A DNA stretch of 32,000 nt from an uncultured Oscillospiraceae bacterium (GCA_934661135.1 CAKUJA010000004.1:8814-40813); one strand, 5' to 3'; shown: positions 2,590 through 28,190, counted from the first letter of the stretch. The notes: generated by a model not told the origin, from the letters alone. Numbers and translations: made by a program.

Positions 2590-2603
2590 GCGCCCACCTC
2601 CTC

Positions 2604-3602: not shown

Positions 3603-3638
3603 GGTGCACGACCTCACTTTCCAAACACTTGTGCGCTT

Positions 3639-4597: not shown

Positions 4598-4625
4598 GGC
4601 ACAGGTTCCTCTCTGCTTCTTTCAT

Positions 4626-4677
4626 CCGCACCATCGCAGGAGCCGCAACCCTCCGGCTCCGTTCGCGATTGATGCGG
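4626..4677 (-). promoter_or_regulatory. Long stem-loop immediately 3' of the major pilin gene (no U-tract)
   Basis: In the minus-strand RNA, CCGCAUCAAUCGC...GGAGCCG-GAGGGUUG-CGGCUCC...GCGAUGGUGCGG forms an inner perfect 7-bp stem plus an outer imperfect stem. This fits a transcript stabiliser or partial terminator between pilA and pilD. Confidence 0.4.
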
Positions 4678-4697
4678 GTTGTAATGGGGTTCGGTGA

Positions 4698-5090
4698 TTA
4701 GCCGATGTTCATGGACAGAGACAGCGTTTCGTACTTTGTGTTTTCCGGAGTGTAGGTGATCGTCCACTTATCAGCGGTCTTTGTGAAGGCAACAGCGCCA
4801 GCCTGCATCTTGACATCCGTACCGGCAACCGTCAGTGTGCCGCCCTTGGCGATATTGTTTGCGTCGGTGGGCAGATCATCAGCAGCTTTTTCTTCCAGCA
4901 TATAGGCAGCAGTGACTTCAGCATAGTAGGCACGGACGTTTGCCTTATCAGCGGAGACCTTCGCTCTGGTCAGGGCGTTGGAGAAGGTGGGGATGGCAAT
5001 GGCGACGATGATGGCGATGATCGCGACAACGATCAGCATTTCCATCAGGGTAAAGCCTTTTTTGTCTTTTTTCAACAGCTTGGAAATCAT
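4698..5090 (-). CDS. pilA: Major type IV pilin
   Basis: 130 aa starting MISKLLKKDKKG/FTLMEMLIVVAIIAIIVAIAIP, a textbook prepilin leader with Glu at +5. AAGGAG upstream. Confidence 0.9.
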   Translation of the reverse strand: MISKLLKKDKKGFTLMEMLIVVAIIAIIVAIAIPTFSNALTRAKVSADKANVRAYYAEVTAAYMLEEKAADDLPTDANNIAKGGTLTVAGTDVKMQAGAVAFTKTADKWTITYTPENTKYETLSLSMNIG

Positions 5091-5172
5091 GGTAAAAGAA
5101 CTCCTTTTACAAAATTTAATGTTATGCGTATCCGCCCGGGAGGGTTGTGCGCCGGGAGGTTAACGACTAAGA

Positions 5173-6381: not shown

Positions 6382-6402
6382 GGCTGTTCACCTCCCGACG
6401 GG

Positions 6403-7464: not shown

Positions 7465-7471
7465 AGCTACC

Positions 7472-9163: not shown

Positions 9164-9185
9164 GGTAACACCTCCGTACACACAA

Positions 9186-9214
9186 AGAAAGGGTGCGATT
9201 TCTCGCCCCTTTCT
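9186..9214 (-). promoter_or_regulatory. Terminator-like hairpin with GAAA tetraloop in the pilB 5' leader, abutting the RBS
   Basis: Minus-strand RNA is AGAAAGGG-GCGA-GAAA-UCGC-A-CCCUUUCU, followed by UUGUGUGUACGGAGGUG(RBS). That is 12 bp with one bulge and a U-rich 3' side. Confidence 0.4.
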
Positions 9215-9390
9215 CTCCCGTAATATCAATTTTACGTCTATTTTTTACCATATTCCGTCCGATTTTTCAACACAGTCCGGCAAATTTCGTCGGTTCCGTT
9301 AAGAAAACGTGAAGTTGCACAGTTATCGTTGAAATCTTTGTGGAAATTTTATAAAAAGTGTTCAGGAATATCTTGGAATTTATTCCTGAT

Positions 9391-11652
9391 TCAGGGACTT
9401 CCTGGGCTTTTCTTCGCACTTTCCGCCCGCAGAAGTGCTTCAAACTCCTGCTGCGGCATTGGCTTGCCGTAGTAGTAACCCTGCATATAGCGGCAGCCGA
9501 TGGCGGCCAGCGCATCCGCCTGCCGCTGCGTCTCCACACCCTCGGCGATGACGTCCATGTGCAGTCCCACGGCCATGGCGATTATCGACGCAAGAATCTG
9601 ACGGCTGCGCGCGTCGTCCTCCCCGGCGGAGAGGAACTTCATGTCGAGCTTGAGGACATCGACGTGCATCTCCTTGAGCATATTCAGCGACGAATAGCCG
9701 GAGCCGAAATCGTCCATTTCGACGCTGAACCCCGCGTCGCGGAGCTGGTTGACCTGCGCAATCAGGCGATCGGGTTTATCCACGTAGGCACTCTCGGTGA
9801 TCTCCAGCCGAAGCTGCGACGGCGCAAGGCCGTTCTGCCGCACAAGCTCCGTCAGCGTCTTCGGCAGATCCGGCTGACAGAGATCCATCCGCGAAATATT
9901 GACCGAGACCGGGACGGCAATGCCGGCGTCCTGCCAGGCACGCAGACAGCGGCAGGTCTTTTCCCAGACGAAGCGGTCGACCCGCGTGATGAGGCTGCTG
10001 TGCTCGAGCAGCGGGACGAATTCGCCCGGCGAGATCATGCCCTTGTGCGGGTGGCGCCAGCGGACAAGCGCTTCCGCGCCGGTATAGGCTTTGGTCTGAT
10101 AGTCGTACTGCGGCTGGAACCAGACCTCGAACTGCTCCTCGCGCAGCGCCGCGTCGACACTGCCGAGCAGCTTTTGCGCCTCCCGCAGCCGATCCATCTG
10201 CCCCGGCTGATAGTAGGCGATGTGCGTCGTGAGGTTGCCCTTAATGGTCTGGAGCGCGAGCAGCGCCTTGTAGCTCATAATATAGGGGTCGCGATCCTCC
10301 TCGCAGAGATCGTAGACGCCGATGTGCAGCACGAGCGAATAGTCGAGCTTATAGGCGGAATAGTGCTCGCAGAACAGGGCGTAGATCTCCTCCGGCGTCA
10401 TGCTGTCCTCGGCGCAGAAGCGGAGAAACGTGTCCGCCGTGAGGTGAGCGGCGAAACTGTCGTCGGTATTGTTGCCGCGCATAAACAGGCCGAAGTCGCG
10501 CAGCAGCGCGTTGCCGGCTTCATAGCCGAACGAGGCGTTGATGTGCTTAAAGCCGTCGAAATCGTAACGCAGCAGGCGGTATCTGCGGCCGGGATTGTCG
10601 CGCATCCACTCGTGGATGCGATGGTATAAGCCGGTTGCGTTATACAGGCCGGTCTGCGCGTCCATGCGGCTGGTGATGATGTCTGAGATGTTTTCACACG
10701 TGAACAGGATGCTCTCGCGGCGCGTGCCGAGCCATGTGTAGCGGAGCTTGAAATAGTGAATGTCTTCGCCGCCCTTCCACGGCTTTGTGCGGAGCGTGAC
10801 GTTGTATTCGCCAGACTGCAGGAGCTTCCGGCGGATATAGGCAAGGGAAACGACCTTTTCCAAGTCGCGGAACTCCTGTGCGTGCATGATACGGGCAAAG
10901 TCCGGCACGATCTCGCCCTGATAGTCAAAAAGCTTGCGGCCGGCGGCGCGCAGCGCACGAGCGGGTCGCTCATCCTGAATCAGGCAGAGCCGGCCGCTTT
11001 CCGGGTCGATCAGGGCCGTGCAGAGGAAATCGTTTCGGATCAGGTTATGGGCGATCTGCTCCATGCGCTTTTCCTCGTTGACGTCGAGCGCGTAGGCGAC
11101 AGCTTCAATCTCGTCATTCTGCGGGTTTTCCATCAGCTCGATGCAGAGGCGGTACCACACATAGCGTTTGCCGTCGAGCCGCATGAGAAAGTCGCCGCGG
11201 AGCGCAAGCTCCCCCGCGGTGAAATGGCGCTGAAAGCTGTCCAGCGACATGACGCTTAAAAACTCGGCGCGGTCGCTCGGGTGGACGCAGAAGCTCAGCT
11301 TTTTGAAAAAGCCGTCGACGCTGCCGGAGTAGCCGTCGCCCAGGTAGAGCGCAGGGTCAAGCATCTGTCCATCGCAGGTGTTGCGCGTGAGATTCATGCG
11401 GTAGGAGCCGACGATGTCTTTGCGGTTGAGGAAGTGGGCGCGCTGCGAGGTATGATACGTCTCCAGCGTTTGCTGGTCTTTCTCCTCACGGCGGCGCAGC
11501 TCGTGCAGGCGGCTGTGCTGGTGGAGCATGATGCCTGCGGCAACCAGCACCAGCACTGCAATTGAGATACCGGCCACAAGCGTGTCCCAGCGCGTCGCTT
11601 CAGACAGCAGAAACAGCCCGGGATAAGTTTGCTCCAAAGCAGTGTGCAGCAT
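9391..11652 (-). CDS. Membrane-anchored PAS-PAS-(degenerate GGDEF)-EAL protein, probable c-di-GMP phosphodiesterase
   Basis: 753 aa with an N-terminal TM helix. The GGDEF-fold region has DFDGFKHINASFGYEAGN, and LTADTF stands where GGDEF should be. The EAL domain has EALVRW, NISR, EITE, DDFGSGYSS, KLD, EGVET and QGYYYGKP all present. Confidence 0.9.
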   Translation of the reverse strand: MLHTALEQTYPGLFLLSEATRWDTLVAGISIAVLVLVAAGIMLHQHSRLHELRRREEKDQQTLETYHTSQRAHFLNRKDIVGSYRMNLTRNTCDGQMLDPALYLGDGYSGSVDGFFKKLSFCVHPSDRAEFLSVMSLDSFQRHFTAGELALRGDFLMRLDGKRYVWYRLCIELMENPQNDEIEAVAYALDVNEEKRMEQIAHNLIRNDFLCTALIDPESGRLCLIQDERPARALRAAGRKLFDYQGEIVPDFARIMHAQEFRDLEKVVSLAYIRRKLLQSGEYNVTLRTKPWKGGEDIHYFKLRYTWLGTRRESILFTCENISDIITSRMDAQTGLYNATGLYHRIHEWMRDNPGRRYRLLRYDFDGFKHINASFGYEAGNALLRDFGLFMRGNNTDDSFAAHLTADTFLRFCAEDSMTPEEIYALFCEHYSAYKLDYSLVLHIGVYDLCEEDRDPYIMSYKALLALQTIKGNLTTHIAYYQPGQMDRLREAQKLLGSVDAALREEQFEVWFQPQYDYQTKAYTGAEALVRWRHPHKGMISPGEFVPLLEHSSLITRVDRFVWEKTCRCLRAWQDAGIAVPVSVNISRMDLCQPDLPKTLTELVRQNGLAPSQLRLEITESAYVDKPDRLIAQVNQLRDAGFSVEMDDFGSGYSSLNMLKEMHVDVLKLDMKFLSAGEDDARSRQILASIIAMAVGLHMDVIAEGVETQRQADALAAIGCRYMQGYYYGKPMPQQEFEALLRAESAKKSPGSP

Positions 11653-11814
11653 CGTGTCTTACGCCTTCTTTCTCTCCATAGGTTGCTTCCGATCAATTCG
11701 CGTACAGTATATCGTTTTGCGGCAAATTTTGCAATCAGAAAAAACGCTGATAACTTCTCTGGTTTTTCTCCGCACCCAAGGGTGCGTTTTTGTGCAATTT
11801 CCGGTGGTTTTTTC

Positions 11815-11843
11815 TTGCATGATTCCCAAACGCGTGTTATTAT
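11815..11843 (+). promoter_or_regulatory. Sigma-A type promoter candidate TTGCAT-17-TATTAT for the REC-HD-GYP-GGDEF operon
   Basis: -35 hexamer at 11815-11820 and -10 hexamer at 11838-11843, with 17-nt spacing. Confidence 0.45.
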
Positions 11844-11871
11844 ATCAACGATAACTTTGGAGCTTGGATGA

Positions 11872-11897
11872 GGCGCTGGCACCCCGGCGTCTTTTTT
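11872..11897 (+). terminator. Terminator-like hairpin plus T6 inside the leader of the REC-HD-GYP-GGDEF gene
   Basis: GGCGCTGG-CACC-CCGGCGTC (8 bp, including 2 G-U pairs) followed by TTTTTT, about 50 nt before the GTG start. Possible attenuator. Confidence 0.4.
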
Positions 11898-11949
11898 GTG
11901 CGCACACTGAACGACCCGCCAGCGCGCGGAACAGAGGGGGGAGCGGCCT

Positions 11950-14334
11950 GTGAAATCAAAACCCACGATCTTAATCGCGGACGATTCCGTCATAAATCAG
12001 CAGATTTTGACCGACATTCTCGGCGAGGAGTATGAATACCTCTACGCCGACAACGGAATGCACGCGCTCGAGCTGCTCGAGAGCAGCACCGACATCGATC
12101 TGCTGCTGCTCGACATCAATATGCCGCAGCTTGACGGCTTCGGCGTGCTCGACGTAATGAACCGCCGCCGCTGGATTGAGGAAATACCGGTCATTATCAT
12201 CTCCGCGGAGGACGACGCCGACTTCATCAGGCGCGGCTATGACCTCGGCGTGATGGACTACCTCCACCGCCCCTTCAATTTCATGGTCGTTCGGCACCGC
12301 GTGAGCAATATGCTGATGCTCTATGCGCGCCAGAAGCGGCTTACGCAGCTTGTGGAGGCGCAGGTGCTTGAACGCGAAAAAACGAACAGCACCATGGTCA
12401 ACATTCTCAGCCACGTCATCGAAACGCGCAACAACGAGTCCGGCGAGCATCTGCTCCACGTGCGCACGCTGACCGAGCTGGTCCTGCGCCAGCTTATGAC
12501 GCTGACCGACCAATATCCGCTGAGCGAAGCGGACATCGCGATGATTACCACGCTCTCCGCGCTGCACGACATCGGCAAGATCGGCATTCCCACGGCGATT
12601 TTGAACAAACCCGGCAAGCTGACCGCCGAGGAATTTGAGCGTATGAAGAACCACTCCGCCATCGGCGACGCGCTGCTGGCGGACGTACCCATTTCGCAGG
12701 ACGACCCGCTGATGCGCACCGCGCACGAGATCTGCCGCTGGCACCACGAACGCTGGGACGGGCGCGGATACCCGGACGGCCTGCGCGGAGACGAGATTCC
12801 GATTTCGGCGCAGGTGGTTGCGCTGGCCGACGTCTATGACGCACTGACCAGCGAGCGCTGCTACAAAAAGGCCGTCCCGCACGAGACGGCCATCCAGATG
12901 ATTGCCAACGGCGAATGCGGCGCGTTTAACCCGCTGCTGACGGACTGCCTGCGCGCCGTTGCCGACAAGCTCGTCACAGCGATAAAGCAGTCGCCGTCCA
13001 AGTTCGATTTTCGTTCCGAGGCGCAGCGGTTGACGACCGAGGTGCTCGCGCAGGAGGATCTGCCCGCCGACGACCGCGCGCGCCGCCTGCTGATGATTGA
13101 GCAGACCAAAACCGCATTTTTTGCGCACCAGTGCGGCGGCATCCAGTTTGAATACGACCGCTGGCTGAACAAGGTGATCTACACCGACTGGTACGCCGAG
13201 CGCGGCGCGCGCCGCCGCGTGCTCTATCTGGACGACGGCGACGACACGCAGCTTCTTCAGCAGAAAGACTGGGATGCGCTGCGCAAGCGTATCCTCACAA
13301 GCACGCGCGAAAACCCGGAATTCGAGATGGAGGCGCTGATTCCGGTCGGCAAGACCTGGCGCTGGCACCGGCTGCGCGTACGGACCATCTGGACGAGCAA
13401 GGATATTGCCTGCTCCGGCGCGGTCGGCCAGTTCACCGACATCCACAATCAGGTCATTGCCCGCGGATTTGCCGCGCTGAACCCGCCAAACCACGAGATG
13501 CCGCAGGCCGAAACGACGATGGAAGAACTGAGGCGGCTGTTCGACGTGGTACGTATTGTCGACCCCAAGACCTGCCATGTCATGGCGCTCGGCGAGGACG
13601 GCGTGCCGGTGGACACCAACGAGTTCTGCTATTCCTTCTGGGGGCGGCAGACAAGCTGCGAAAACTGCTCGTCATCGCGCGCAATGAGCGAGGAGCGCTG
13701 GACGAACAAGCTCGAATTCCAAGGCAGCACGGCCTATTTTGTGATCTCCCGCTACCAGGAGATCGGCGGGAAGCGCTGTGTGCTGGAGATCGCGTCACGG
13801 CTCGATGAGGATCTCGCGGCACCCTCGTGCGACGGCTGCGGACAGGCCGCAGTGCCGCGCAGCTATCTGCTGACGTTCTACCGCGACGCGCTCACCCGCG
13901 CCTATTCCCGGCTGTATCTTGACACCTTTTCGCCAAGACTCGAACACGCCGACGGTGTGGCCATCATCGACGTGGACAAATTCAAGCAGATTAACGACAC
14001 CTACGGCCACCCGGTCGGCGACAAGGCGCTGCGTATCATCGCGGGCACGATTCTCTCCTGCATCCGCGACAGCGACACGCTGATCCGCTACGGCGGCGAC
14101 GAATTTCTGCTGCTGTTCTCGAAGATCTCGGAAGAAGTCTTTCACCGCCGCCTGGCGCAGATTCGCTCCGCTGTGGCCGGCACGCCGCTGCCCGGGCACC
14201 CGGAGCTGCATTTGAACATCAGCGTCGGCGGCGTCTACCAGGTCTATCCGCTGGGCGAAGCCATCCGGCAGGCCGATCTGAAGATGTACCAAAGTAAAAC
14301 GGCGAAAGAATCGTCCAAGGAGGATGCAATATGA
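11950..14334 (+). CDS. Response-regulator receiver - HD-GYP - PAS - Cys-rich module - GGDEF multidomain protein
   Basis: 794 aa, GTG start after GGGGGGAG. REC domain (ILIADDS, LLLLDINMP). HD-GYP domain (ALHDIGKIGIP, HHERWDGRGYPDGL). GGDEF domain (DVDKFKQINDTYGHPVGD, RYGGDEFLL) with an RDSD I-site 5 residues upstream of GGDEF. Confidence 0.9.
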   Translation: MKSKPTILIADDSVINQQILTDILGEEYEYLYADNGMHALELLESSTDIDLLLLDINMPQLDGFGVLDVMNRRRWIEEIPVIIISAEDDADFIRRGYDLGVMDYLHRPFNFMVVRHRVSNMLMLYARQKRLTQLVEAQVLEREKTNSTMVNILSHVIETRNNESGEHLLHVRTLTELVLRQLMTLTDQYPLSEADIAMITTLSALHDIGKIGIPTAILNKPGKLTAEEFERMKNHSAIGDALLADVPISQDDPLMRTAHEICRWHHERWDGRGYPDGLRGDEIPISAQVVALADVYDALTSERCYKKAVPHETAIQMIANGECGAFNPLLTDCLRAVADKLVTAIKQSPSKFDFRSEAQRLTTEVLAQEDLPADDRARRLLMIEQTKTAFFAHQCGGIQFEYDRWLNKVIYTDWYAERGARRRVLYLDDGDDTQLLQQKDWDALRKRILTSTRENPEFEMEALIPVGKTWRWHRLRVRTIWTSKDIACSGAVGQFTDIHNQVIARGFAALNPPNHEMPQAETTMEELRRLFDVVRIVDPKTCHVMALGEDGVPVDTNEFCYSFWGRQTSCENCSSSRAMSEERWTNKLEFQGSTAYFVISRYQEIGGKRCVLEIASRLDEDLAAPSCDGCGQAAVPRSYLLTFYRDALTRAYSRLYLDTFSPRLEHADGVAIIDVDKFKQINDTYGHPVGDKALRIIAGTILSCIRDSDTLIRYGGDEFLLLFSKISEEVFHRRLAQIRSAVAGTPLPGHPELHLNISVGGVYQVYPLGEAIRQADLKMYQSKTAKESSKEDAI

Positions 14335-14684
14335 TCACGCTGGCTGAGTTCTATGCCCGCCTGGGCGGGAGCCGCGAGGAAGTCCTGAAGCGAATCCCCA
14401 CCGAGAAAATGATTCTGAAATTTGTCAATATGTATAAAGCCGACCCCAGCTATGGACAGCTCACCGCGGCCGTCAAGGTCGAGGACTGGCAGAGCGCGTT
14501 CCGCGCGGCGCACGCGCTCAAGGGCGTGGCGCTAAACCTCGGCTTTGAAAGACTGCAAGCCGCCGCGTCCACGCTGGCCGAGGCGCTGCGCGGCGCAAAG
14601 CCGCTGACCGATCCGTCGCTGCTCGAAGCCGTGACCCGCGAGCATGAGGAGACGATGGCCGCGTTGTCTGCGTTGGAGGACTGA
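14331..14684 (+). CDS. Stand-alone Hpt (histidine phosphotransfer) domain protein
   Basis: 117 aa. Contains the AAHALKGVALNLG motif (H-x-x-K-G). ATGA overlap with the upstream gene. Confidence 0.8.
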   Translation: MITLAEFYARLGGSREEVLKRIPTEKMILKFVNMYKADPSYGQLTAAVKVEDWQSAFRAAHALKGVALNLGFERLQAAASTLAEALRGAKPLTDPSLLEAVTREHEETMAALSALED

Positions 14685-14722
14685 CACGGTCTGTCCCGCA
14701 TGGCGCGGAATTTCCAGTTCAG

Positions 14723-14806
14723 GTGGCCGTCAATGACGCGATCCGCAGCGCCGACGAGATGATATACCACGATAAGGAGCTGTACCGCGAGCACGTAGTC
14801 CTCTGA
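14723..14806 (+). pseudogene. Possible orphan 3' remnant of a GGDEF-domain gene
   Basis: Frame reads VAVNDAIRSADEMIYHDKELYREHVVL*. It resembles the C-terminus of the neighbouring GGDEF protein (EAIRQADLKMYQSK). No start codon or upstream domain is present. Confidence 0.3.
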
Positions 14807-14830
14807 ATGGGCACGTCCGGGCATAAATGA

Positions 14831-14865
14831 GCACCCGCCGCTCTGCTTGGCAGAGCGGCGGGTGC
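14831..14865. terminator. Bidirectional intrinsic terminator between convergent operons
   Basis: GCACCCGCCGCTCTGC-TTG-GCAGAGCGGCGGGTGC, a perfect 16-bp stem followed by TTTGA. Sits between the Hpt operon and tcdA. Confidence 0.75.
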
Positions 14866-14883
14866 TTTGACTCTATGGGACGA

Positions 14884-15639
14884 TCAGTGGGCGACCAGAT
14901 CCTTGATGACCTCGCCGGCGATAATCAGGCCGACGACCGGCGGCACGAAGGCCGTGGAGCCGGGGATGTCGCGGCGCTCGGTGCATTTGCGCGTCGTACC
15001 CGGCGGGCAGACGCAGTGGTTGCGGCAGGAGATGGTTCCGTCATCCATCGGGCGGATCGGCTTTTCCTGCGAGTAGACGACCTTCAGGCTCTTGATGCCG
15101 CGCTTGCGGCACTGGACGCGCATGACGCGCGAGAGCGGGCAGACGGACGTCTCGTAGATGTCGGCCACGCGAAAGGCCGTGGGGTCGAGCTTGTTGCCCG
15201 CGCCCATGGCGCAGATGATCGGCGTGCCCACCGCCTTCGCCTGCTCGACGAGGGAGAGCTTGCCGGAGACGGTATCGATCGCGTCGACCACGTAGTCATA
15301 CTGCGAAAAGTCGAACTGATCCTGCGTCTCGGGCAGGTAGAAGCACTTGTGCGTTGTGACCACGCAGTTGGGGTTGATGGCGTGGATGCGCTCCTCCGCG
15401 ACATCGACCTTGTATTTGCCGACGGTGGTGCGCAGCGCTATGATCTGGCGGTTGATATTGGTCAGGCAGACGCGGTCATCATCGATGAGGTCGAGCGCGC
15501 CGACGCCGGAGCGCGCGAGCGCTTCAACGGTATAGCCGCCGACGCCGCCGATGCCGAACACGGCCACGCGGCTGTTTGCGAGTTTCTCCATGGCCTCATG
15601 GCCGAGAAGCAGTTCGGTTCTGGAAAATTGATTCAGCAT
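14884..15639 (-). CDS. tcdA: tRNA threonylcarbamoyladenosine dehydratase (ThiF/E1-like, TcdA/CsdL family)
   Basis: 251 aa. Contains FGIGGVGG, the Rossmann motif of ThiF/MoeB-like proteins, with typical TcdA length and sequence style. Confidence 0.8.
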   Translation of the reverse strand: MLNQFSRTELLLGHEAMEKLANSRVAVFGIGGVGGYTVEALARSGVGALDLIDDDRVCLTNINRQIIALRTTVGKYKVDVAEERIHAINPNCVVTTHKCFYLPETQDQFDFSQYDYVVDAIDTVSGKLSLVEQAKAVGTPIICAMGAGNKLDPTAFRVADIYETSVCPLSRVMRVQCRKRGIKSLKVVYSQEKPIRPMDDGTISCRNHCVCPPGTTRKCTERRDIPGSTAFVPPVVGLIIAGEVIKDLVAH

Positions 15640-15648
15640 AAGACCATC

Positions 15649-16074
15649 CTAAATTACATAATTGTCTGCCTGGGGCGCGCTCATCAGGTCTGCCAGCGTG
15701 ATGCCCTCAAAATAGTCCTGCGTGAGCTTGTAATATCCCCGCCAGACCGGAAGCGTGCGGCACTCGGCCGCGCGGGTGCATGGCTCCGCGCCGCTTTGCA
15801 GGCAGGCTACGGGCGCAAGGCTGCCCTCGGCGATGCGCAGGATTTCCCAGAGCGTATACTGCTCCGGCTCGCGCGTCAGGCGGTAGCCGCCACCGATGCC
15901 GTGGGTGCTGGCGATCAGGCCGGCCGCTTTGAGCGGCGGCAAAATCCGCTCGACATATTTCAGTGAGATCTCCTGCCGGGCAGCGACCTCCTTCATCGGG
16001 ATATAGCTGCCGTTATAATGCTCCGCAAGATCGAGCAGGATGCGGATGGAGTACCTGCCTTTGGTTGAGATCAT
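15649..16074 (-). CDS. Rrf2-family transcriptional regulator (CymR/IscR-like, three Cys ligands)
   Basis: 141 aa starting MISTKGRYSIRILLDLA, with a winged HTH. Contains C-x7-C-x5-C (VACLQSGAEPCTRAAEC). GGAAAGGAG RBS. Stop codon is TAG. Confidence 0.9.
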   Translation of the reverse strand: MISTKGRYSIRILLDLAEHYNGSYIPMKEVAARQEISLKYVERILPPLKAAGLIASTHGIGGGYRLTREPEQYTLWEILRIAEGSLAPVACLQSGAEPCTRAAECRTLPVWRGYYKLTQDYFEGITLADLMSAPQADNYVI

Positions 16075-16093
16075 GGTGGCTCCTTTCCGGGTT

Positions 16094-16792
16094 TTACTTC
16101 AGGCGCTTGTCACACTTTGTGACGAGCTTCGTGCCGACGCTCTGGAAGATCTGCACGAGCAGAATCAGGAATACGACGGCAAGGGCCATGACGAGGTATT
16201 GATAGCGATAGTAGCCATAGTTGATGGCAATTTTGCCAAGACCGCCGCCGCCGATGATGCCGCTCATGGCCGAATAGCCAAGAATGGTGGTGACGGCGAT
16301 GGTGGCGTTGGAGATGAGCGAGGGGACGCTCTCGGGCAGCATGACCTTGACAATGATCTGAAGCGGCGAAGCGCCCATGCTCTGCGCCGTTTCGATGATA
16401 TTGGGATTCAGCTCGCGCAGGCTGGACTCGACCAGACGCGCAATGAAGGGGAACGAGGCGATGACCAGCGGGACGATGGACGCCGGTGTGCCGACGACCG
16501 TGCCCACGATCAGGCGCGTCAGCGGGAACACGAGAATCATCAAAATCAGGAACGGCACGGAGCGGAGCAGATTGATGATGACGTTCAGAACCCGCAGAAG
16601 CCACTGCGGAACGTGCAGAATGCGGTTATTTTCGCCCGCGACCAGCAGCACGCCGAGCGGCAGGCCAAGGACAATGGCAAAAAACGTGGACAGGAGCGTG
16701 ACATAGACCGTCTCCCAGATGGCAAGCGGGAACTGCTGAATCAGAATTTGCAGCGCGTTTTGAAACGTCTCAGACTGGAAGAACTCAGACAT
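16094..16792 (-). CDS. metI: Methionine ABC transporter permease
   Basis: 232 aa polytopic MetI-type permease. Overlaps the metN stop by 8 nt. Confidence 0.9.
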   Translation of the reverse strand: MSEFFQSETFQNALQILIQQFPLAIWETVYVTLLSTFFAIVLGLPLGVLLVAGENNRILHVPQWLLRVLNVIINLLRSVPFLILMILVFPLTRLIVGTVVGTPASIVPLVIASFPFIARLVESSLRELNPNIIETAQSMGASPLQIIVKVMLPESVPSLISNATIAVTTILGYSAMSGIIGGGGLGKIAINYGYYRYQYLVMALAVVFLILLVQIFQSVGTKLVTKCDKRLK

Positions 16793-17795
16793 ATGCGTCC
16801 ACCTCCTCTACAAAAATATCGGGAATTGTGCGCAGGTAGGTCTTGGCGCGCGCCAGCTCCTCCTCGCCGCCGGGAATGCCGAGCAGCATATTGCCGTAGG
16901 CCTTTTCGCCGATGCCTTTGGTCGACGCGCCGAGGATGCTGGCCGTAATGCCGCAGTCCAGCGCCATCTGAGCGATAAGGGGCGTCTTGGTGGCCTTGGC
17001 GCCATTGAACACAACACGGAGCATTTTGCCCTCATCGAACTTCACGACCGGCTGCTCATAGCCGTCGGGATACACAAGGCGCTTGGCCGCCTGCGACTGC
17101 GGCGCGGCAAAGACCTCGCTGACCTTGCCCTCCTCGGCAACCTCGCCGCCGTCGAGAATGGCGACACGCGTGCAGATCTGCTCGACGACGCTCATCTGGT
17201 GGGTGATCACGATGACGGTAATGCCAAGACGGTCGTGGATGTCGCGGATCAGGGAGAGGATGGACTGGGTGCTCTGCGGATCGAGCGCGCTGGTAGCTTC
17301 GTCGCAGAGCAGAATCTTCGGATGGGTCGCAAGCGCACGTGCAATCGCCACACGCTGCTGCTGGCCGCCGGAAAGCTGCGAGGGATAGCTTTTCAGCTTT
17401 TCACCAAGGCCGACAAGCTCCAGAAGCTCCGCCGCGCGCGCCATTGCTTCTGCGCGCTTCATGCCGGCCAGCTCCAGCGGGAAACAGACATTGCGCTGGC
17501 AGGTTCGCTGCATGAGCAGATTGAACCCCTGAAAGATCATGGTGATATTGCGGCGCTCCTCGCGCAGTTCCGCTTCGGTCAGGCTGGCCATGTCGCGGCC
17601 GTTGATGACAATTTTGCCGCTGGTCGGCCGTTCGAGCATATTGATGCTGCGCACGAGCGTACTTTTCCCCGCGCCGCTCATGCCGATAATGCCGTAGATT
17701 TCGCCGTCGGGGATGGTCAGCGTGATATTCTTCAGCGCTTCCACGGTTCCGCCCGACGTGGTAAAGGTCTTTGATAGGTTCTGAATCTCGATCAA
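16785..17795 (-). CDS. metN: Methionine ABC transporter ATP-binding protein (C-terminal NIL domain)
   Basis: 336 aa. Walker A GMSGAGKST, signature LSGGQQQR, Walker B ILLCDEATSALD, and a C-terminal NIL-type extension. Confidence 0.9.
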   Translation of the reverse strand: MIEIQNLSKTFTTSGGTVEALKNITLTIPDGEIYGIIGMSGAGKSTLVRSINMLERPTSGKIVINGRDMASLTEAELREERRNITMIFQGFNLLMQRTCQRNVCFPLELAGMKRAEAMARAAELLELVGLGEKLKSYPSQLSGGQQQRVAIARALATHPKILLCDEATSALDPQSTQSILSLIRDIHDRLGITVIVITHQMSVVEQICTRVAILDGGEVAEEGKVSEVFAAPQSQAAKRLVYPDGYEQPVVKFDEGKMLRVVFNGAKATKTPLIAQMALDCGITASILGASTKGIGEKAYGNMLLGIPGGEEELARAKTYLRTIPDIFVEEVDAYV

Positions 17796-17867
17796 TGCGA
17801 TCCCTCCAACAAAAGGGAATAACGCTGGCGGCGATTTGCTGGCAGCGTTATTCCCGTCATTTAGTTT

Positions 17868-18713
17868 TTATTTCAGTGCGTCCAGATTGCTCTGCTTGCC
17901 GCCGTAGAGACCCATCGGCTCCACGTGGACAACCAGAACGGAGACAAGGTGCGTACCGTTCTCGGCGTTGAAGTCCTCCAGATACGGAACGTGCTGGAAG
18001 TAGTTCGCGTCAATCTCGCCGCTCTCCACGACGTTGTTCGGCTGGACATAGTCGGTGAATTCCTTGATGTCGAGCGTGATGTCCTTCTCGGCCAGGATTT
18101 CCTTGGCGACGGAGAGGACCTCGGCGTGCGGGGTGGGCGTGGCAGCGACGGTGATGGTCTCGCCGGCGAGGGCGTCGTAGTCGACGGAGTCGTCATAGCC
18201 ATTGCCCGGGTTTTCCACGACGCTGATGACCGCGCCGCCGTAGTTCTCCGCGATATAATCTGCAACCTGCTGGCTGGCAACGGCCGCTTTGAGCGCCTTG
18301 ATCTTATCGGTTTCCTCGTTGCCTTCCTTGACGACCAGAACGTTGCCATACGCGGAAGCGGAGCCTTCGATCAGCAGAGAATCCGTCGTCGGGTTCAGAC
18401 CGGCGGGAATTGCGTAGTTGGAGTTGATGATGGCGTAGTCGACGTCCTGAAGGACATTCGGCACCTGCGCGGCTTCCACTTCCTTGAACTCGATGTTCTT
18501 CGGGTTCTCGGCGATGTCGTTGACGGTAGCAGTGATACCGGCGCCGTCTTTCAGCTTGATGTAGCCGTTGTCCTGAAGCAGGAGCAGCGCGCGCGCTTCG
18601 TTGGTCGCGTCATTCGGGACGGCAATGGTGATGGTGGACGATTTGCTGCCGCAGGCGGTCAGCGCGCCGATCAGCAGAACTGCAATCAGCAACAGAGCAA
18701 TATTCTTTTTCAT
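17868..18713 (-). CDS. metQ: Methionine-binding lipoprotein (NlpA/MetQ family)
   Basis: 281 aa. Signal peptide with lipobox LTAC followed by a MetQ-like body. Confidence 0.9.
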   Translation of the reverse strand: MKKNIALLLIAVLLIGALTACGSKSSTITIAVPNDATNEARALLLLQDNGYIKLKDGAGITATVNDIAENPKNIEFKEVEAAQVPNVLQDVDYAIINSNYAIPAGLNPTTDSLLIEGSASAYGNVLVVKEGNEETDKIKALKAAVASQQVADYIAENYGGAVISVVENPGNGYDDSVDYDALAGETITVAATPTPHAEVLSVAKEILAEKDITLDIKEFTDYVQPNNVVESGEIDANYFQHVPYLEDFNAENGTHLVSVLVVHVEPMGLYGGKQSNLDALK

Positions 18714-18803
18714 AATCGAAAAACCTCTCTTTTTGATTTATTGATATAATAATGATATATGTGGACAAATTTACATCAGGCGGTCACATTCGCCCGCGTT
18801 TTA

Positions 18804-18817
18804 GATTCGCGCGAATC
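18804..18817. promoter_or_regulatory. Perfect 14-bp palindrome GATTCGCGCGAATC upstream of metQ (candidate operator)
   Basis: Exact self-complementary sequence. Lies between the leader terminator and the metQ RBS. Confidence 0.35.
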
Positions 18818-18850
18818 AGCGCTTCAAAATCATGCAGCATAAACCCCTCC

Positions 18851-18891
18851 GAAAAAGAAATAACCAGGATGCCCCGATGGAGCTTCCCGGT
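18851..18891 (-). terminator. Intrinsic terminator inside the met operon leader (attenuator candidate)
   Basis: Minus-strand RNA is ACCGGGA-A-GCUCC-AUC-GGGGC-A-UCCUGGU followed by UAUUUCUUUUUC. Located about 30 nt after the leader ORF stop and about 140 nt before metQ. Confidence 0.6.
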
Positions 18892-18921
18892 AAAACACAC
18901 GTGAAATCAGTCGCCAAAGAT

Positions 18922-19014
18922 TCAGGCGACAGCCTCGGGAGAGCGCATCGGATCGGACGTGACGCAGCACATACGGCACATCTCCATAGGCATCATCGTG
19001 CAGGTCTTGGTCAT
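18922..19014 (-). CDS. 30-codon Met/Cys-rich leader ORF: MTKTCTMMPMEMCRMCCVTSDPMRSPEAVA
   Basis: ATG at 19014 with GGAAAGGAG ending 9 nt upstream; TGA at 18922-18924. 7 Met and 4 Cys in 30 codons. Sits between a promoter and a terminator upstream of metQNI. The stop codon lies inside the small hairpin GTCGCC-TGAATCTTT-GGCGAC. Confidence 0.5.
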   Translation of the reverse strand: MTKTCTMMPMEMCRMCCVTSDPMRSPEAVA

Positions 19015-19208: not shown

Positions 19209-19285
19209 GGACAGTTAGCTCAGCTGGTATGAGCACATGCTTGACGTGCATGGGGTCACAGGTTCGAGTCCTGTACTGTCCACCA
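19209..19285 (+). tRNA. tRNA-Val (anticodon GAC), CCA encoded
   Basis: Cloverleaf read by hand. Acceptor stem GGACAGT/ACTGTCC, D stem GCTC/GAGC, anticodon stem CATGC/GCATG with loop TTGACGT, T stem ACAGG/CCTGT with loop TTCGAGT, then ACCA. Confidence 0.95.
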
Positions 19286-19286
19286 T
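19237..19286. repeat. attL: 50-bp direct repeat (3' part of tRNA-Val)
   Basis: ATGCTTGACGTGCATGGGGTCACAGGTTCGAGTCCTGTACTGTCCACCAT is identical to 28141-28190. Confidence 0.9.
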
Positions 19287-19440: not shown

Positions 19441-19485
19441 GTGGCACGCTTCCGATGTGGCACCTATGTGGCACCCGCGTGGCAC
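19441..19485. repeat. Four direct GTGGCAC repeats (candidate integrase arm-type sites), left arm
   Basis: Copies start at 19441, 19457, 19468 and 19479; the last three are 11 bp apart. The array sits just 3' of the int stop. Confidence 0.6.
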
Positions 19486-19491
19486 CTGTTT

Positions 19492-20589
19492 TCAGCCAAA
19501 CGCGGCGCAGACCTTTTGCGCGGTGCTTTGCTGGCGCGATTCGTGCTGATAATGGGTATAAACGCGCAGCGTCATATTGACCGTGGCGTGTCCTGCGAGA
19601 TATTGAATCTCCTTGATATCCAGCCCGCTCTCAAATAACCGTGTGATGTAGGTATGTCTGAGTCGGTGCGGATGAACGTGGAAATCCAACGTGCGGACAA
19701 CCTTGGAGTGCGGCGCGGTCGTCCAGAGATCGGCAGGATCATCAACCGTGCGGTTCTCGATCATTTGAAGCAGACACTTGAGACTGCTTTTGGAAAGCGG
19801 TTTTCCATTTTCCATGTGCAGCACATAAAGGCCCTTTGCGCCTTTGCGCTCCTTTACAAGCTCTGCAAACAGCGTGGGCGGTATCGGAATATCCCGGACT
19901 GCGGCAGAGGTCTTGAGGGTGTCGCTGACGGTCGTTTGCGCGTTTGTGAGCAGCGCATTGTGCCGAACCTGAATCACACCCGCAGGGAAATCAACGTCCG
20001 ACCACATCAGCCCGCAAAGCTCTCCGCGCCGCATACCGGTTTGAAGTGCCAACAGGCAGAAAAGATATGCTCGCGTTCCTCTCGTCGCGTCCAAAAGGCG
20101 CTGAGACTGTTCAGCGGTGAGTGGGATTTCTTCCTGCGTTGTCTTGCCGCCGATTCGCAAGGTTGCCGGGACTGGCGATTTTGCAATCAGGTTGTTATCC
20201 ACGGCTGCATTAAAAATCCCGCGAAGCACCTGCACCACCTTATTATTCAGGCTCTTGCTCATTTTGGATACAGACGCAATGACAAGCTGAATTTGTATCT
20301 GATTGACCTTTTTGAGCGGCACGTCCCGCAGATAAGGATAAATGTGATTGTTCAGCACGTTTTCAATAGCAAGCAAAGAGTTTTGCCGAAGATACGGCAC
20401 CTTATAGACGCGAAGCCAGAGCGCGGCATATTCTCCAAAAGTAGAGTTGTCGGAAACGTCAAGACCCGCTCCAATCTGTGTCAATAGCTCCTGTTTTTTC
20501 TGTTCCAATCCCTCCTGACTGACAGAACGAATCCACTTGCGCTTGCCGTTCGGAAGCGTGATGGAAGCCCTATAAAGTTTGTTTTTCAT
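19492..20589 (-). CDS. int: Tyrosine site-specific integrase
   Basis: 365 aa. N-terminal SAM-like domain. Catalytic Arg context MRRGELCGL, then HRLRHTYITRL (H-x-x-R) and LAGHATVNMTLRVYTHY (His, Tyr). GGAGAG RBS. Confidence 0.9.
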   Translation of the reverse strand: MKNKLYRASITLPNGKRKWIRSVSQEGLEQKKQELLTQIGAGLDVSDNSTFGEYAALWLRVYKVPYLRQNSLLAIENVLNNHIYPYLRDVPLKKVNQIQIQLVIASVSKMSKSLNNKVVQVLRGIFNAAVDNNLIAKSPVPATLRIGGKTTQEEIPLTAEQSQRLLDATRGTRAYLFCLLALQTGMRRGELCGLMWSDVDFPAGVIQVRHNALLTNAQTTVSDTLKTSAAVRDIPIPPTLFAELVKERKGAKGLYVLHMENGKPLSKSSLKCLLQMIENRTVDDPADLWTTAPHSKVVRTLDFHVHPHRLRHTYITRLFESGLDIKEIQYLAGHATVNMTLRVYTHYQHESRQQSTAQKVCAAFG

Positions 20590-20806: not shown

Positions 20807-21223
20807 ATGAACGCAGATTTGATGAATGGAACGATTGTAATGTCGCAGAATGAGGCACGGAAAGCCGGTAGATTTGGGACAGACGAATATGAGATGTTGG
20901 CAAAGCTGATGCAGCAATTCCCCGCTTTCCGCATTGAAGTTGTGAAGCCCTCCGCAAAGAGAACAGACCATTTCAAGGGTCTGACACGTGCTTATATGAA
21001 ACAGTATGTTGAAAGCCACGATTCGAAGAAGCTGGCAGATTTCTATGCGCTGTGTGGTCTGGATGAGAGCGGAAAAAAGCAGGAATTGGCTGCGGCTGCT
21101 TCCTATGGCGAGCTGAAAATGTGGTTCCTTGAGCAGTTTCCTGAAATCGAGCAGATGAGTGAGAACATCAGAAGGATCATGGATAGAACACGAGAAGCAC
21201 GTGCGGCGCGGAAAGCGTCGTAA
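20807..21223 (+). CDS. Hypothetical protein, paralogue 1 of a tandem pair
   Basis: Start trimmed to MNADLMNGTIVM, with AAGGAG 9 nt upstream. Shares NG-IVM..EY..L....P....KGLT..YM..Y....WFLE.(F/Y)P with the next ORF. Confidence 0.7.
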   Translation: MNADLMNGTIVMSQNEARKAGRFGTDEYEMLAKLMQQFPAFRIEVVKPSAKRTDHFKGLTRAYMKQYVESHDSKKLADFYALCGLDESGKKQELAAAASYGELKMWFLEQFPEIEQMSENIRRIMDRTREARAARKAS

Positions 21224-21247: not shown

Positions 21248-21715
21248 ATGAAAGTCACGCTTAAAGTTGACCATGAGAATGGTCGTATTGTGATGAATAG
21301 AACATTTGCAAATCTGGCGGCCAATGTTTTCAGCGAAGAATATAAAATCTTGCAGGGAGCCCGGCAGGACTATCCGACTTACGTGGTAGTGCGCCGGACA
21401 ATCAAAAAGAACCCGAACCGTGAATGCTATCGCGGGCTGACCTATGACTATATGCGTGACTACATCAGCCGCTACGAGCCAGAAGAAACCCGTGAAAGCG
21501 TCTGCGCCGAGTTGGAGGACATGATCCAGATTTCCCGCTGTCACAGCCGCTGCAAGCGTTATCCTGTTATCAAACAGTGGTTCTTGGAAAAGTATCCGGA
21601 CGTAAAAAACTTTGGGATGGAAGCATTTGCGGAAGAAGAAACAGAGAACATCACAACGCTTTCTGCTCTTGCAGCCGATCCCGCGCCGGACGAGATCAAG
21701 GGCAAATCTGCCTGA
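21248..21715 (+). CDS. Hypothetical protein, paralogue 2 of a tandem pair
   Basis: 155 aa with AGGAGGAAC RBS. Collinear similarity to 20807-21223 (ENGRIVMNR.., RGLTYDYMRDY, KQWFLEKYPDV). Confidence 0.7.
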   Translation: MKVTLKVDHENGRIVMNRTFANLAANVFSEEYKILQGARQDYPTYVVVRRTIKKNPNRECYRGLTYDYMRDYISRYEPEETRESVCAELEDMIQISRCHSRCKRYPVIKQWFLEKYPDVKNFGMEAFAEEETENITTLSALAADPAPDEIKGKSA

Positions 21716-21807
21716 TTCGATTTTTTTAATAAAATATTATATAATATTTATAGAAAGTTAAGGGAAATCAAAACTTTCAATCAAAAAATGAAGGGTGGTG
21801 AACCATT

Positions 21808-22074
21808 GTGAACAAAGGATATGATTCGTTTTCCAAGCAGTTCTTTATTGACCTGCGCAAAAATGGAGACTATGCCTTGGCGAATATGTTAAAGAAATAG
21901 CTCTTTATGGACTATTTAAACGATTCCAAACGGATGGACGAGCTTGTATAGCGCGTTACGGATAAAGTAGAAGCTGATTTTACATCAGGCAAAATCAGCG
22001 TGACCCTCGAATCAAAGCCGTTGGACGATGCAATCGAGGAAATCAATAACCGTCTAAAAAACTTGGGGCAGTAA
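21808..22074 (+). pseudogene. 88-codon frame interrupted only by two in-frame TAG codons (pseudogene or amber read-through gene)
   Basis: GTG at 21808 follows AAGGGTGGTG. The frame reads VNKGYDSFSKQFFIDLRKNGDYALANMLKK-TAG(21898)-LFMDYLNDSKRMDELV-TAG(21949)-RVTDKVEADFTSGKISVTLESKPLDDAIEEINNRLKNLGQ-TAA(22072). Confidence 0.5.
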
Positions 22075-22099: not shown

Positions 22100-22573
22100 A
22101 TGCCTACAACTGTACCAAATCAGCGGACGATCTGCGTTCATCGGGAAAAAGCCTCCGCAGATTTCCTAGGTATAAAAAATCGGAATTGGATGGCGGCATC
22201 CCGTGACCTTGGCGCACACGCGCTGCGGCTCTATCTGTATCTGGCTGCAAACGCAAATAACTATTCATTGGCGCTGTCGCCTGCTGCACTCTTGGAGGAA
22301 ATTGGAATGCCGCGTTCCACTTATCATGACCAATTCAAGGTGCTGGAATCCAAGGGCTATCTGATTCACAGAAGTGGAAATACATACGACTTCTATGAAA
22401 AGCCGCAGACGAGCCACGACATACAAGAAAAGAGTGAGTTGTCGTCCGGCAGTCAGGAAAAACCGCCGAACGTAGATTTTACACCGACGCAGGATACAGA
22501 AATAAATATTATAAATAAAAAAAATAATAACGAGGGAGTTTTAGAAAATGCAAGACCTGTGTTCAAATTTTAA
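22100..22573 (+). CDS. Winged-helix DNA-binding protein (possible replication/initiator-type)
   Basis: 157 aa. Contains LGAHALRLYLYLAANAN..LSPAALLEEIGMPRSTYHDQFKVLESKGYL, a wHTH pattern. The C-terminus is low-complexity. GAAAGGAAAAAG RBS. Confidence 0.55.
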   Translation: MPTTVPNQRTICVHREKASADFLGIKNRNWMAASRDLGAHALRLYLYLAANANNYSLALSPAALLEEIGMPRSTYHDQFKVLESKGYLIHRSGNTYDFYEKPQTSHDIQEKSELSSGSQEKPPNVDFTPTQDTEINIINKKNNNEGVLENARPVFKF

Positions 22574-22583
22574 AGAGACTTTT

Positions 22584-22781
22584 ATGAAGATAATGAAGGC
22601 TAAGAAAATGACAAATATTATCAACTTGATTATGGCCGAGACTGAACGAGATCGAGATAGAGAACACTACGAGGAACTGATGACAGCGGCATATAACCTC
22701 TGGGGATTTCTCAATTACGATCTGGGATGTGCTAACCCGCCAGACGAGATATGGGAAGGAAGCGGCAAGTTTGAATTTTGA
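22584..22781 (+). CDS. Small hypothetical protein
   Basis: 65 aa from MKIMKAKKM. The track start at 22548 overlaps the previous gene. RBS is weak. Confidence 0.4.
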   Translation: MKIMKAKKMTNIINLIMAETERDRDREHYEELMTAAYNLWGFLNYDLGCANPPDEIWEGSGKFEF

Positions 22782-23208
22782 GCAGCGAATCTATCAGTCC
22801 CTAAAGCGCAAGGGACTGGCAGCGCAATTTGAATGTGCGGGCATTTATGCGATCCTACTGGATGGCAAGATTGTTTACATAGGAAAGAGCGTCAATATCC
22901 TTGCGCGGATGGCATAGCATTACGCACAGCTTGCACAAGGCAAGGAACATAAGTACCGCATACTCGCTGAGGCTACGCGCAGCGGACGCAAAATGTGCTT
23001 CACTGTGCTTTACCGAGCCTAGCAGAGCGGCTATGACGCAATTACAGAAGAAATCGGTCAGAAGGAGGGCGAGTATATCCGCCTCCACAGACCGCCGCTG
23101 AATCAATAGATACCAAAAGAAGAAAACTGGCGTCAGTTTCAGACGAATCGAAATGTGCAGAGCATTACACTGTCTGAGCTGCTGGAATATATAGGAGAAC
23201 AAAAATGA
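22771..23208 (+). pseudogene. GIY-YIG nuclease frame with three in-frame TAG codons (pseudogene or amber read-through gene)
   Basis: One frame contains AGIYAILLDGKIVYIGKS..ARMA-TAG(22915)-HY....FTVLYRA-TAG(23020)-QSGYDAITEEIGQKEGEYIRLHRPPLNQ-TAG(23107)-IPKEENW...GEQK-TGA(23206). The GIY..YIG, Arg and E..YI....P..N motifs are all in register. The start is uncertain: TTG 22771 after GGAAGGAAG, or GTG 22729. Confidence 0.6.
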
Positions 23209-28028: not shown

Positions 28029-28059
28029 GCTTCTTCCCATAGCCTTATTTGGTTTGTGT

Positions 28060-28077
28060 GTGGCACCCGTGTGGCAC
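28060..28077. repeat. Two direct GTGGCAC repeats (candidate arm-type sites), right arm
   Basis: Copies start at 28060 and 28071, 11 bp apart. They have the same orientation as the left-arm array. Confidence 0.55.
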
Positions 28078-28140
28078 CTGCACGGTTTATGAATGGCGGA
28101 AATCCTTGCAATATCAATGCTTTGGGGCGTCAGCCCCATG

Positions 28141-28190
28141 ATGCTTGACGTGCATGGGGTCACAGGTTCGAGTCCTGTACTGTCCACCAT
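28141..28190. repeat. attR: 50-bp direct repeat (tRNA-Val 3' fragment, not a gene)
   Basis: Identical to 19237-19286. The acceptor 5' strand and D arm are not present upstream. Confidence 0.9.

Follow-up and report, generated by a model that had tools for sequence, protein, structure and literature searches.

The locus described here raises the question of how a bacterial reading frame that is interrupted twice by TAG, and by no other stop codon, should be read. The frame, here termed f88, has 88 codons and lies within an 8.9-kb integrative element in a 32,000-nucleotide stretch of DNA (the window) from an uncultured Oscillospiraceae bacterium (GCA_934661135.1 CAKUJA010000004.1:8814-40813). 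Comparison of the element with its relatives indicates that f88 is one functional gene, neither a pseudogene nor three small open reading frames (ORFs), and that its TAGs are almost certainly translated as glutamine (Gln, Q). Taken as a whole, the explanation that we favour, and in which we have considerable confidence, is that of a single f88 gene with TAG-to-Gln decoding by a decoder that acts in trans.

On the plus strand, f88 (21808..22074) runs from a GTG start to a TAA terminator (22072-22074), and its delineation is based on translation, a conserved frame, substitution patterns and single-frame homologues. The conceptual product consists of three segments, VNKGYDSFSKQFFIDLRKNGDYALANMLKK, LFMDYLNDSKRMDELV and RVTDKVEADFTSGKISVTLESKPLDDAIEEINNRLKNLGQ, of which the first ends at TAG-1 (codon 31, 21898..21900), the second at TAG-2 (codon 48, 21949..21951) and the third at the TAA. 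The GTG is preceded, at a distance of 7 nt, by the Shine-Dalgarno-like sequence AAGGGTGGTG (21791..21800, plus strand), and AAAGGTGGTG in this region is kept among relatives. An earlier account made from this DNA alone (the sequence-only reading) described the frame as interrupted solely by the TAGs at 21898 and 21949, which translation reproduces, and placed it about 0.7 kb 5' of a TAG-interrupted GIY-YIG nuclease frame; the two do lie on the same strand and in the same gene cluster. Its statement that segment 2 has neither a start codon nor a ribosome-binding site of its own is half right: an ATG is present at 21907 (M of LFMDY), two codons 3' of TAG-1, and it has no good Shine-Dalgarno sequence. 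From this ATG, public gene callers report a 55-amino-acid (aa) ORF in 17 relatives in which TAG-2 is CAG.

In the window alone, frames of at least 70 codons free of TAA and TGA are frequent by chance, above all in the GC-rich part, and the f88 pattern judged by the window alone is therefore not significant. Its significance rests on the comparison with relatives, as far as sequences can tell.

Close relatives comprise 25 metagenome copies with 89-98 % DNA identity, which come from independent samples and assemblies with differing flanks, and were gathered from the contigs of 55-aa homologues and from contigs with an identical copy of the winged-helix protein (wHTH) encoded next to f88. Site 21898 (TAG-1) is TAG in 25 of 25 copies, while site 21949 (TAG-2) is CAG in 17 (L001-L017) and TAG in 8 (L038-L045) as well as in the window. 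In the GIY-YIG gene, among the copies that cover each site, 22915 is TAG in 7 and CAG in 8 (L038-L045), 23020 is TAG in 13 of 13 and 23107 is TAG in 10 of 10. No TAA, TGA or indel was found in the f88 frame of the 25 copies, nor in 12 core genes compared across 11 copies, among which TAG is limited to f88, a 77-aa protein gene (p77) and the GIY-YIG gene. In these relatives, standard gene calling leaves f88 uncalled or calls it as the 55-aa fragment.

Selection was assessed by Nei-Gojobori counts between the window and copy L001, with one-sided Fisher tests on the same counts. The whole of f88 has accumulated 23 synonymous and 14 non-synonymous differences, which corresponds to a ratio of non-synonymous to synonymous change (pN/pS) of 0.16 (p 2e-9), and the ratio is low in segment 1 (0.21, p 4e-3), segment 2 (0.13, p 2e-3) and segment 3 (0.17, p 3e-4) taken separately. 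The other two frames of the same region give 2.29 and 1.13. Downstream of its first TAG, the GIY-YIG gene has a pN/pS of 0.07 (p 2e-8), and uninterrupted neighbour genes range from 0.12 to 0.21. The low values in each segment therefore show that the sequence 3' of each TAG is constrained as protein in the f88 frame; neutrality downstream of the TAGs, an outcome that would have spoken against the sequence-only reading, is not what is seen.

The first homologue search with f88 returned three 55-aa proteins alone, which start at MDY and have Q at the TAG-2 position. A profile search extended the family to about 198 database proteins, mostly of 76-96 aa. Distant homologues form a single frame of 76-86 codons with 13-29 % identity and have TAG elsewhere or not at all. 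Six loci (L019-L024) encode a divergent f88 homologue 5' of the wHTH gene, with 13-24 % identity and one frame that ends in ..L(G/A/Y)x. TAG occupies the alignment column of TAG-1 in L019 and L027 and other columns than those of the window in L021 to L024; in L021, a Q lies one alignment column after TAG-1. The homologues of L020 and of two IMG/VR loci (L032 and L033), translated here from DNA, are TAG-free and run uninterrupted across all three segments. Such single-frame homologues rule out three unrelated short ORFs, and together with the purifying selection downstream of the TAGs they uphold the earlier proposal that the amber-only interruption reflects readthrough rather than decay.

Database homologues were partly rejected as proof of Q at the TAG columns. 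Two of them, P0005 and P0016 (loci L027-L031), were flagged as not translating to the query ('translates_to_query: no'): their DNA has TAG, and the deposited Q results from a pipeline translation in code 15, that is, from an assumption of the depositor. The equivalence of TAG and Gln in distant loci is therefore based here solely on DNA translated in this analysis.

The same pattern extends, in the window or in related copies, to three neighbours of f88 (wHTH, p77 and GIY-YIG) in the cluster, in which f88 is followed by a DnaD-like wHTH, p77, the GIY-YIG nuclease and a 93-aa protein (p93); the sequence-only reading, which had recognized f88 and the GIY-YIG gene as affected, was correct for both and too narrow for the element family. 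The wHTH gene (22100..22573, plus strand) is TAG-free in the window and encodes a 157-aa protein whose matches to phrog_270 (8e-9) and phrog_186 (4e-6) relate it to the N-terminal region of replication initiators of phages and of DnaD-like loaders. The p77 gene (22548..22781, plus strand), likewise TAG-free in the window, has TAG in L001, L011 and L043 where the window has TTG at 22626. The GIY-YIG gene (22771..23208, plus strand) contains in-frame TAGs at 22915, 23020 and 23107, two of which are spanned by its match to PF01541 (2.5e-6).

Exchange between TAG and Gln codons recurs among distant loci. In five other loci, the wHTH gene has TAG at codon 8-9, where PN(TAG)R corresponds to PNQR in the DNA translated here, and NW(TAG)AAARD likewise corresponds to NWQAAARD. 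In the GIY-YIG protein, RMA(TAG)HYAQL in the window faces RMAQHYA(TAG)L in L033, so that TAG and Q trade places, and further swaps are ENWRQF for ENWR(TAG)F, LNQ(TAG)IP for LNTQIP and AAQFEC for SP(TAG)FEH. In tblastn alignments of the distant loci, 17 in-frame stops are aligned with a defined residue, which is Q for 13 of them; for wHTH the proportion is 10 of 11, while GIY-YIG stops face Q in three cases and the TAGs of the window itself in six. A count over family genes in the window and 11 loci gave 36 in-frame stops, every one of them TAG; across the family, in-frame TAGs occupy about 20 distinct columns, most of which align with Gln. The base after the in-frame TAG is C in 13 of the 36, compared with 29 of 175 after CAG or CAA (Fisher p = 0.01, uncorrected for relatedness). 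In the window, C follows four of the five TAGs.

Outside the cluster, TAG is avoided. Homologues of the integrase, p138, p109, DUF6809 and WYL proteins showed no in-frame stop in 2,858 codons aligned by tblastn in the distant loci; two stops in p155 and one in the serine recombinase occur in weaker alignments. The integrase has no TAG in its 365 codons in the window, none in any relative and none in 925 aligned codons of distant integrases. In the close copies, the integrase, the 138/155-aa paralogues and the resolvase module never contain TAG, and the cargo genes of the window are TAG-free. The element as a whole has five TAG codons in 2 of its 15 genes (two in f88 and three in GIY-YIG), and none of the 15 genes uses TAG as a terminator, an observation which is weak alone, with a chance expectation of a few per cent. 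These comparisons indicate that, in this element family, TAG is a glutamine codon limited to the one gene cluster. The assignment to Gln follows from the CAG/TAG polymorphisms at sites 21949 and 22915 together with the Q/TAG swaps in distant loci, and TAG-1 is also read as a sense codon, most likely for Gln.

The host, a gut bacterium of Clostridia type, appears to use the standard code. Its DNA (positions 1-19,000 and from about 29,000) has about 60 % GC and carries ordinary genes, including a type IV pilus operon and genes for GGDEF/EAL proteins and a MetNIQ transporter, in addition to an AraC-type regulator and a sugar transporter that were named by eye from translations; full Pfam matches were obtained for 10 host ORFs. 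The 17 host ORFs examined, over 22 kb, contain no in-frame TAG, despite many Gln codons, and the sole TAG terminator among them is that of the prepilin peptidase gene (3800-4597, minus strand). Readthrough of that TAG would add 24 codons. Plus-strand ORFs that end in TAG (1535-3641) were discarded, as they have no Pfam hits and the real genes lie on the minus strand.

A decoder was searched for within the window and beyond. ARAGORN and Rfam revealed no tRNA inside the island, the only tRNA being the tRNA-Val of the host, and a scan for anticodon loops found no CUA anticodon stem-loop in the whole 32 kb. The window contains neither pyl genes nor a tRNA(CUA), and no suppressor tRNA was detected by ARAGORN in about 40 related loci. 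With no amber-suppressor tRNA in the element itself, decoding must depend on a factor supplied in trans. A suppressor tRNA of its own does not strictly define a recoded element, since such tRNAs were detected in just 40 % of TAG-recoded phage genomes (bioRxiv 10.1101/2021.08.26.457843).

We infer from this arrangement both the supply of the suppressor in trans and a gating role for the TAGs. Under ordinary host decoding, f88 would end after 30 residues and the GIY-YIG nuclease after 48, and both would be produced at full length only when a Gln-charged tRNA(CUA) is present in the cell. The most likely supplier would be a TAG-recoded phage, either infecting or induced from a prophage. The TAGs may thus constitute a translational gate on f88 and GIY-YIG, and in other lineages also on the Rep-like wHTH and p77, which would couple expression of the replication/nuclease cluster to the presence of a recoded phage. 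A more specific and distinctly tentative version is that the element either hitch-hikes on amber-recoded phages or defends its host against them, with the in-frame TAGs as its infection sensor. The cluster would then be untranslatable in a healthy standard-code cell and would become translatable through phage tRNA(CUA)-Gln, so that the code switch of the phage would trigger either satellite replication or a nuclease attack on the phage.

Transcription of the cluster may point in the same direction. A promoter-like block (TTCGAT, 18 nt, TATAATATTTATAGAAAG; 21716..21757, 42 bp, plus strand) lies upstream of f88 and is conserved in nine elements (L019, L021, L022, L024, L025, L027, L028, L032 and L033), where it is near-identical, in the form TTGAtttt, about 17 nt, TATAATATTTATAGAAAG, while the f88 proteins there are 13-24 % identical. 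This block is probably the start of the TAG-bearing gene cluster. In IMG/VR, more than 120 exact matches were obtained for the 18-mer TATAATATTTATAGAAAG and 20 for its reverse, a control of the same composition. Among the matches listed, most are in contigs of 60-200 kb with a common -35/TG/-10 context, and tRNA genes occur at 51 of 120 motif loci and tRNA(CUA) at 12 of 120, compared with tRNA genes at 0 of 20 control loci. When the gain in ORF coverage with TAG as sense was compared with that for TGA as sense in 91 motif-bearing phage loci of at least 5 kb, 15 favoured TAG and 8 TGA, which does not discriminate between the two. The motif and tRNA counts, which are circumstantial, suggest that the cluster promoter is of a class used by gut phages that bear tRNA arrays, some of which encode amber suppressors. 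Such a promoter class fits co-regulation with these phages, without proving it, and in the sensor scheme its proximity to the tRNA arrays of large gut phages would add transcriptional coupling.

Several observations weigh against decoding as Gln in trans or weaken its support. Neither the window nor the related loci scanned for tRNAs yielded a suppressor tRNA, a release-factor gene or any other factor for decoding. Support for a standard-code host amounts to 17 ORFs with a single TAG terminator in 22 kb. The TAG site of p77 matches TTG (Leu) rather than a Gln codon, and three GIY-YIG stops face Gly in the tblastn alignments. The recoded genes are of replication type, and not the late structural or lysis genes stressed for recoded phages. 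Finally, the association of the promoter with suppressors has a small control (20 loci) and concerns IMG/VR at large rather than the specific phages of this host.

The main rival explanation is that the TAGs are real stops with a low level of host readthrough by near-cognate tRNA-Gln, which act as a throttle on a toxic nuclease and its partner and require no dedicated suppressor; we consider it improbable. It would account for the failure to find a suppressor in the element family (window and related loci scanned), the TAG/CAG polymorphism would mean that both states are tolerated, and the enrichment of C after TAG described above also suits it, as a C after a stop codon weakens bacterial termination. 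However, natural readthrough is well under 1 % per site, and two or three TAGs in the GIY-YIG gene would multiply to essentially no product, yet this gene is under strong purifying selection over its full length, including the part past the first TAG.

Considerably less likely is decoding of TAG by the host itself, via a chromosomal amber-suppressor tRNA or a pyrrolysine system, with the element adapted to its host. The rarity of the TAG terminator (1 of 17 host ORFs in the window) would suit such a host, but the absence of in-frame TAGs from its ORFs over 22 kb and the one ORF that does end in TAG would not. The TAG/CAG exchange points to Gln rather than pyrrolysine, and the window contains no pyl genes or tRNA(CUA). 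Moreover, related elements occur in Oscillospiraceae, Lachnospiraceae, Acutalibacteraceae and Erysipelotrichaceae, and Oscillospiraceae hosts of recoded prophages have been reported to be standard-code (bioRxiv 10.1101/2021.08.26.457843).

It is highly unlikely that the frame consists of separate ORFs, namely a 30-residue peptide that ends at TAG-1 and a 55-residue protein that starts at ATG 21907, with TAG-2 as a recent knock-out. The ATG exists and the 55-aa ORF is annotated in 17 relatives, but it has no Shine-Dalgarno sequence, and TAG-2 is found in 9 independent assemblies that are otherwise free of lesions. The homologues of L020, L032 and L033 cross the junction without a stop, TAG occupies different positions of this one frame in other lineages, and what is clearly one GIY-YIG domain is divided into three by TAGs in the same manner. 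The notion that f88 is a pseudogene that decays within a defunct island, for which the frame broken under the standard code and the lack of virion genes might be cited, hardly deserves credence in view of purifying selection in every segment, the absence of TAA, TGA and indels from 11 copies with about 20 distinct family stop sites that are all TAG, the occurrence of the exact wHTH protein in 421 blocks of an assembly collection, and the differing samples and flanks of the relatives, which exclude assembly duplicates of one source.

The element in which f88 is read, in our favoured explanation, with TAG as Gln is bounded by a perfect 50-bp direct repeat. The first copy, attL (19237..19286, plus strand), is the 3' part of tRNA-Val(GAC) (19209-19285), the last 50 bp of which are repeated at attR (28141..28190, plus strand). 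The copies start 8,904 bp apart, which was taken as the length of the element, and the DNA between them has 43-52 % GC (about 0.45), compared with about 60 % in the host. Just inside both ends, TGTGGCACC-type repeats (19456-19488 and 28059-28080) are candidate arm-type binding sites of the integrase. The left part of the island encodes a tyrosine integrase (19492..20589, minus strand; recognized by the Phage_integrase Pfam tags that its identical counterpart bears in related contigs), two paralogous proteins of 138 and 155 aa (20807-21223 and 21248-21715), and then the cluster from f88 to the 93-aa protein. The paralogues match no Pfam, PHROG, NCBIfam or PADLOC family and have the common motifs Y-[KR]-GLT-x-x-YM and WFL-x-x-[FY]P. 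The right part encodes an XRE repressor (minus strand), a p109-DUF6809-serine recombinase module, a lipoprotein and an XRE/WYL pair.

None of the element proteins was recognized as belonging to a capsid, tail, terminase or lysis family. Pfam, PHROGs, NCBIfam and PADLOC likewise recognized no genes for the hijacking of packaging (small terminase, capsid-size redirection or head-tail adaptor) and no primase-helicase, although several element genes match no family at all and divergent versions of packaging or replication genes could escape family searches. PADLOC yielded nothing beyond generic WYL matches and two marginal matches to serine recombinases, and no sequence match to the element was found among GenBank phages or PLSDB plasmids. 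The exact wHTH protein of the element is listed in the 421 blocks mentioned above, most of those seen being human-gut metagenomes, and the element is therefore widespread and intact.

Related loci provide some further observations. In L038-L045, a constant element core is combined with variable cargo 3' of the serine recombinase, in the form of an AI-2E transporter, a BglII-type restriction-modification pair, a lipoprotein or a WYL regulator, and the element often adjoins other integrative elements with large serine recombinases. A scan of species-representative genomes with wHTH identified nine loci with 38-64 % identity, in metagenome-assembled genomes labelled Oscillospiraceae, Ruminococcaceae, Clostridiaceae, Clostridia, Lachnospiraceae, Acutalibacteraceae and Erysipelotrichaceae. 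The C-terminal halves of the DnaD-like wHTH proteins are very variable, and 10 of 13 translated proteins end in F-x-F (FKF, FIF, FEF, FVF, FSF or FHF); this end, encoded at 22562-22570 in the window and found among the homologues of L018-L028 and L033, except in L024 and L026, may be a short docking motif.

L033 is located at the end of a 96-kb IMG/VR contig with 36 % GC, in which a uracil-DNA glycosylase gene (7190-7903) has one in-frame TAG near its N-terminus. The f88-wHTH-p77-GIY module (9736-11157) follows about 1.8 kb further on, with TAGs at positions unlike those of the window. At the position of the glycosylase TAG, E. coli Ung presumably has Q. Four large IMG/VR phages (L034-L037) were considered as recoded relatives and set aside: the TAG in their wHTH homologue lies 9 codons before the end of the frame and is probably a true stop, and their other ORFs of at least 300 codons are TAG-free, except for frames that overlap such ORFs on the opposite strand. 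Another candidate, the 21-kb IMG/VR contig L167, encodes a GIY-YIG gene with three TAGs and an integrase (L167:1-10736), followed by a partial 3' end of tRNA-Pro (about 1868-1912, minus strand), past which holin-like, lysin, tail and 1,088-aa genes have no in-frame TAG. It was rejected as a 21-kb phage with the module, since the tRNA-Pro repeat parts the integrase from the TAG-free lysis and tail genes and thereby marks a junction of element and prophage; the repeat may be an att site shared by both.

The function of f88 can be addressed to a limited extent. The protein has no significant match in Pfam, PHROG, NCBIfam or PADLOC, its sole Pfam hit being far below the cut-off. An AlphaFold model of the family member P0016, built from 34 sequences, has four helices at low confidence (pLDDT 61, pTM 0.26), in line with a predicted small all-helical protein of an uncharacterised family. 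For the nuclease, comparison with solved structures gave a marginal match to T4 EndoII alone. Because f88 has a fixed place, directly 3' of the conserved promoter and immediately 5' of the DnaD-like gene, its gene position alone suggests, as a guess, an accessory or regulatory role in the replication module of the element. If TAG is decoded as Gln, the junction peptides of f88 would be QLFMDYLNDSK (or KQLFMDYLNDSK) and MDELVQR, and those of GIY-YIG would span MAQHYAQLAQGK.

The locus also has consequences for annotation, as f88 is missed, and the GIY-YIG nuclease split or missed, when genes are called in the standard code, while the code-15 translation of distant relatives by some pipelines mixes real and inferred Gln in protein databases. 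Descriptions of stop-codon recoding have treated it as a trait by which phages time their late genes; in the present case, it concerns an island that is not of phage size, and genes of early or replication type. If the suppressor is supplied by a co-resident phage, one mobile element would read the genetic-code switch of another. With five genes, five TAGs and natural TAG/CAG variants, the cluster would offer a simple, testable system for code switching in conflicts between mobile elements.

The closest known systems are recoded temperate phages. 'Topaz' prophages with TAG-to-Gln decoding (code 15) and TAG-free integrases reside in standard-code Oscillospiraceae (bioRxiv 10.1101/2021.08.26.457843), and 'Garnet' is a temperate phage of Prevotella recoded in the same manner (Borges et al., bioRxiv 10.1101/2021.08.26.457843). 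With these, the element shares the alignment of TAG with Gln, a standard-code host, integration in a tRNA gene, a GC content below that of the host, a TAG-free integrase, genes that are fragmented in the standard code and a suppressor tRNA that often goes undetected. The element is smaller than Topaz (8.9 kb compared with 22 +/- 3 kb) and, unlike both, it lacks capsid, tail, terminase and lysis genes; it also has no sequence match among GenBank phages. Whereas nearly all genes are fragmented in Topaz and Garnet, the element has five TAGs in 2 of 15 genes, and these belong to a replication/nuclease cluster rather than to late genes.

Phage satellites, including phage-inducible chromosomal islands (PICI), capsid-forming PICI (cfPICI), P4-like elements and PICI-like elements (PLE), resemble the element in other respects, as an island of about 9 kb at a tRNA with an integrase, two XRE-type regulators, a phage-like replication-initiator gene and variable cargo, including a restriction-modification pair in relatives; one relative also lies beside a prophage at a partial tRNA-Pro repeat. 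In contrast to satellites, no packaging, capsid-remodelling or primase-helicase genes were recognized in the element, and a dependence on a helper is suggested by its need for a suppressor. Literature searches found no paper that describes recoded satellites or islands; recoding to sense the suppressor tRNA of a co-infecting phage has been proposed as a hypothesis (Borges et al., bioRxiv 10.1101/2021.08.26.457843).

As in crAss-like and Lak phages, an in-frame TAG would block translation until tRNA(CUA) is present. Those are large virulent phages that encode their own suppressor tRNA and recode late genes, whereas in the present case the presumed suppressor would be encoded on another replicon than the gated genes. 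TAG-to-Gln decoding of the gut-phage type is already known, and it is the carrier and the pattern that differ from those described: an 8.9-kb island without virion genes and without a suppressor of its own, in which TAG is confined to a replication/nuclease cluster, shows natural TAG/CAG polymorphism and occurs in an element of high prevalence.

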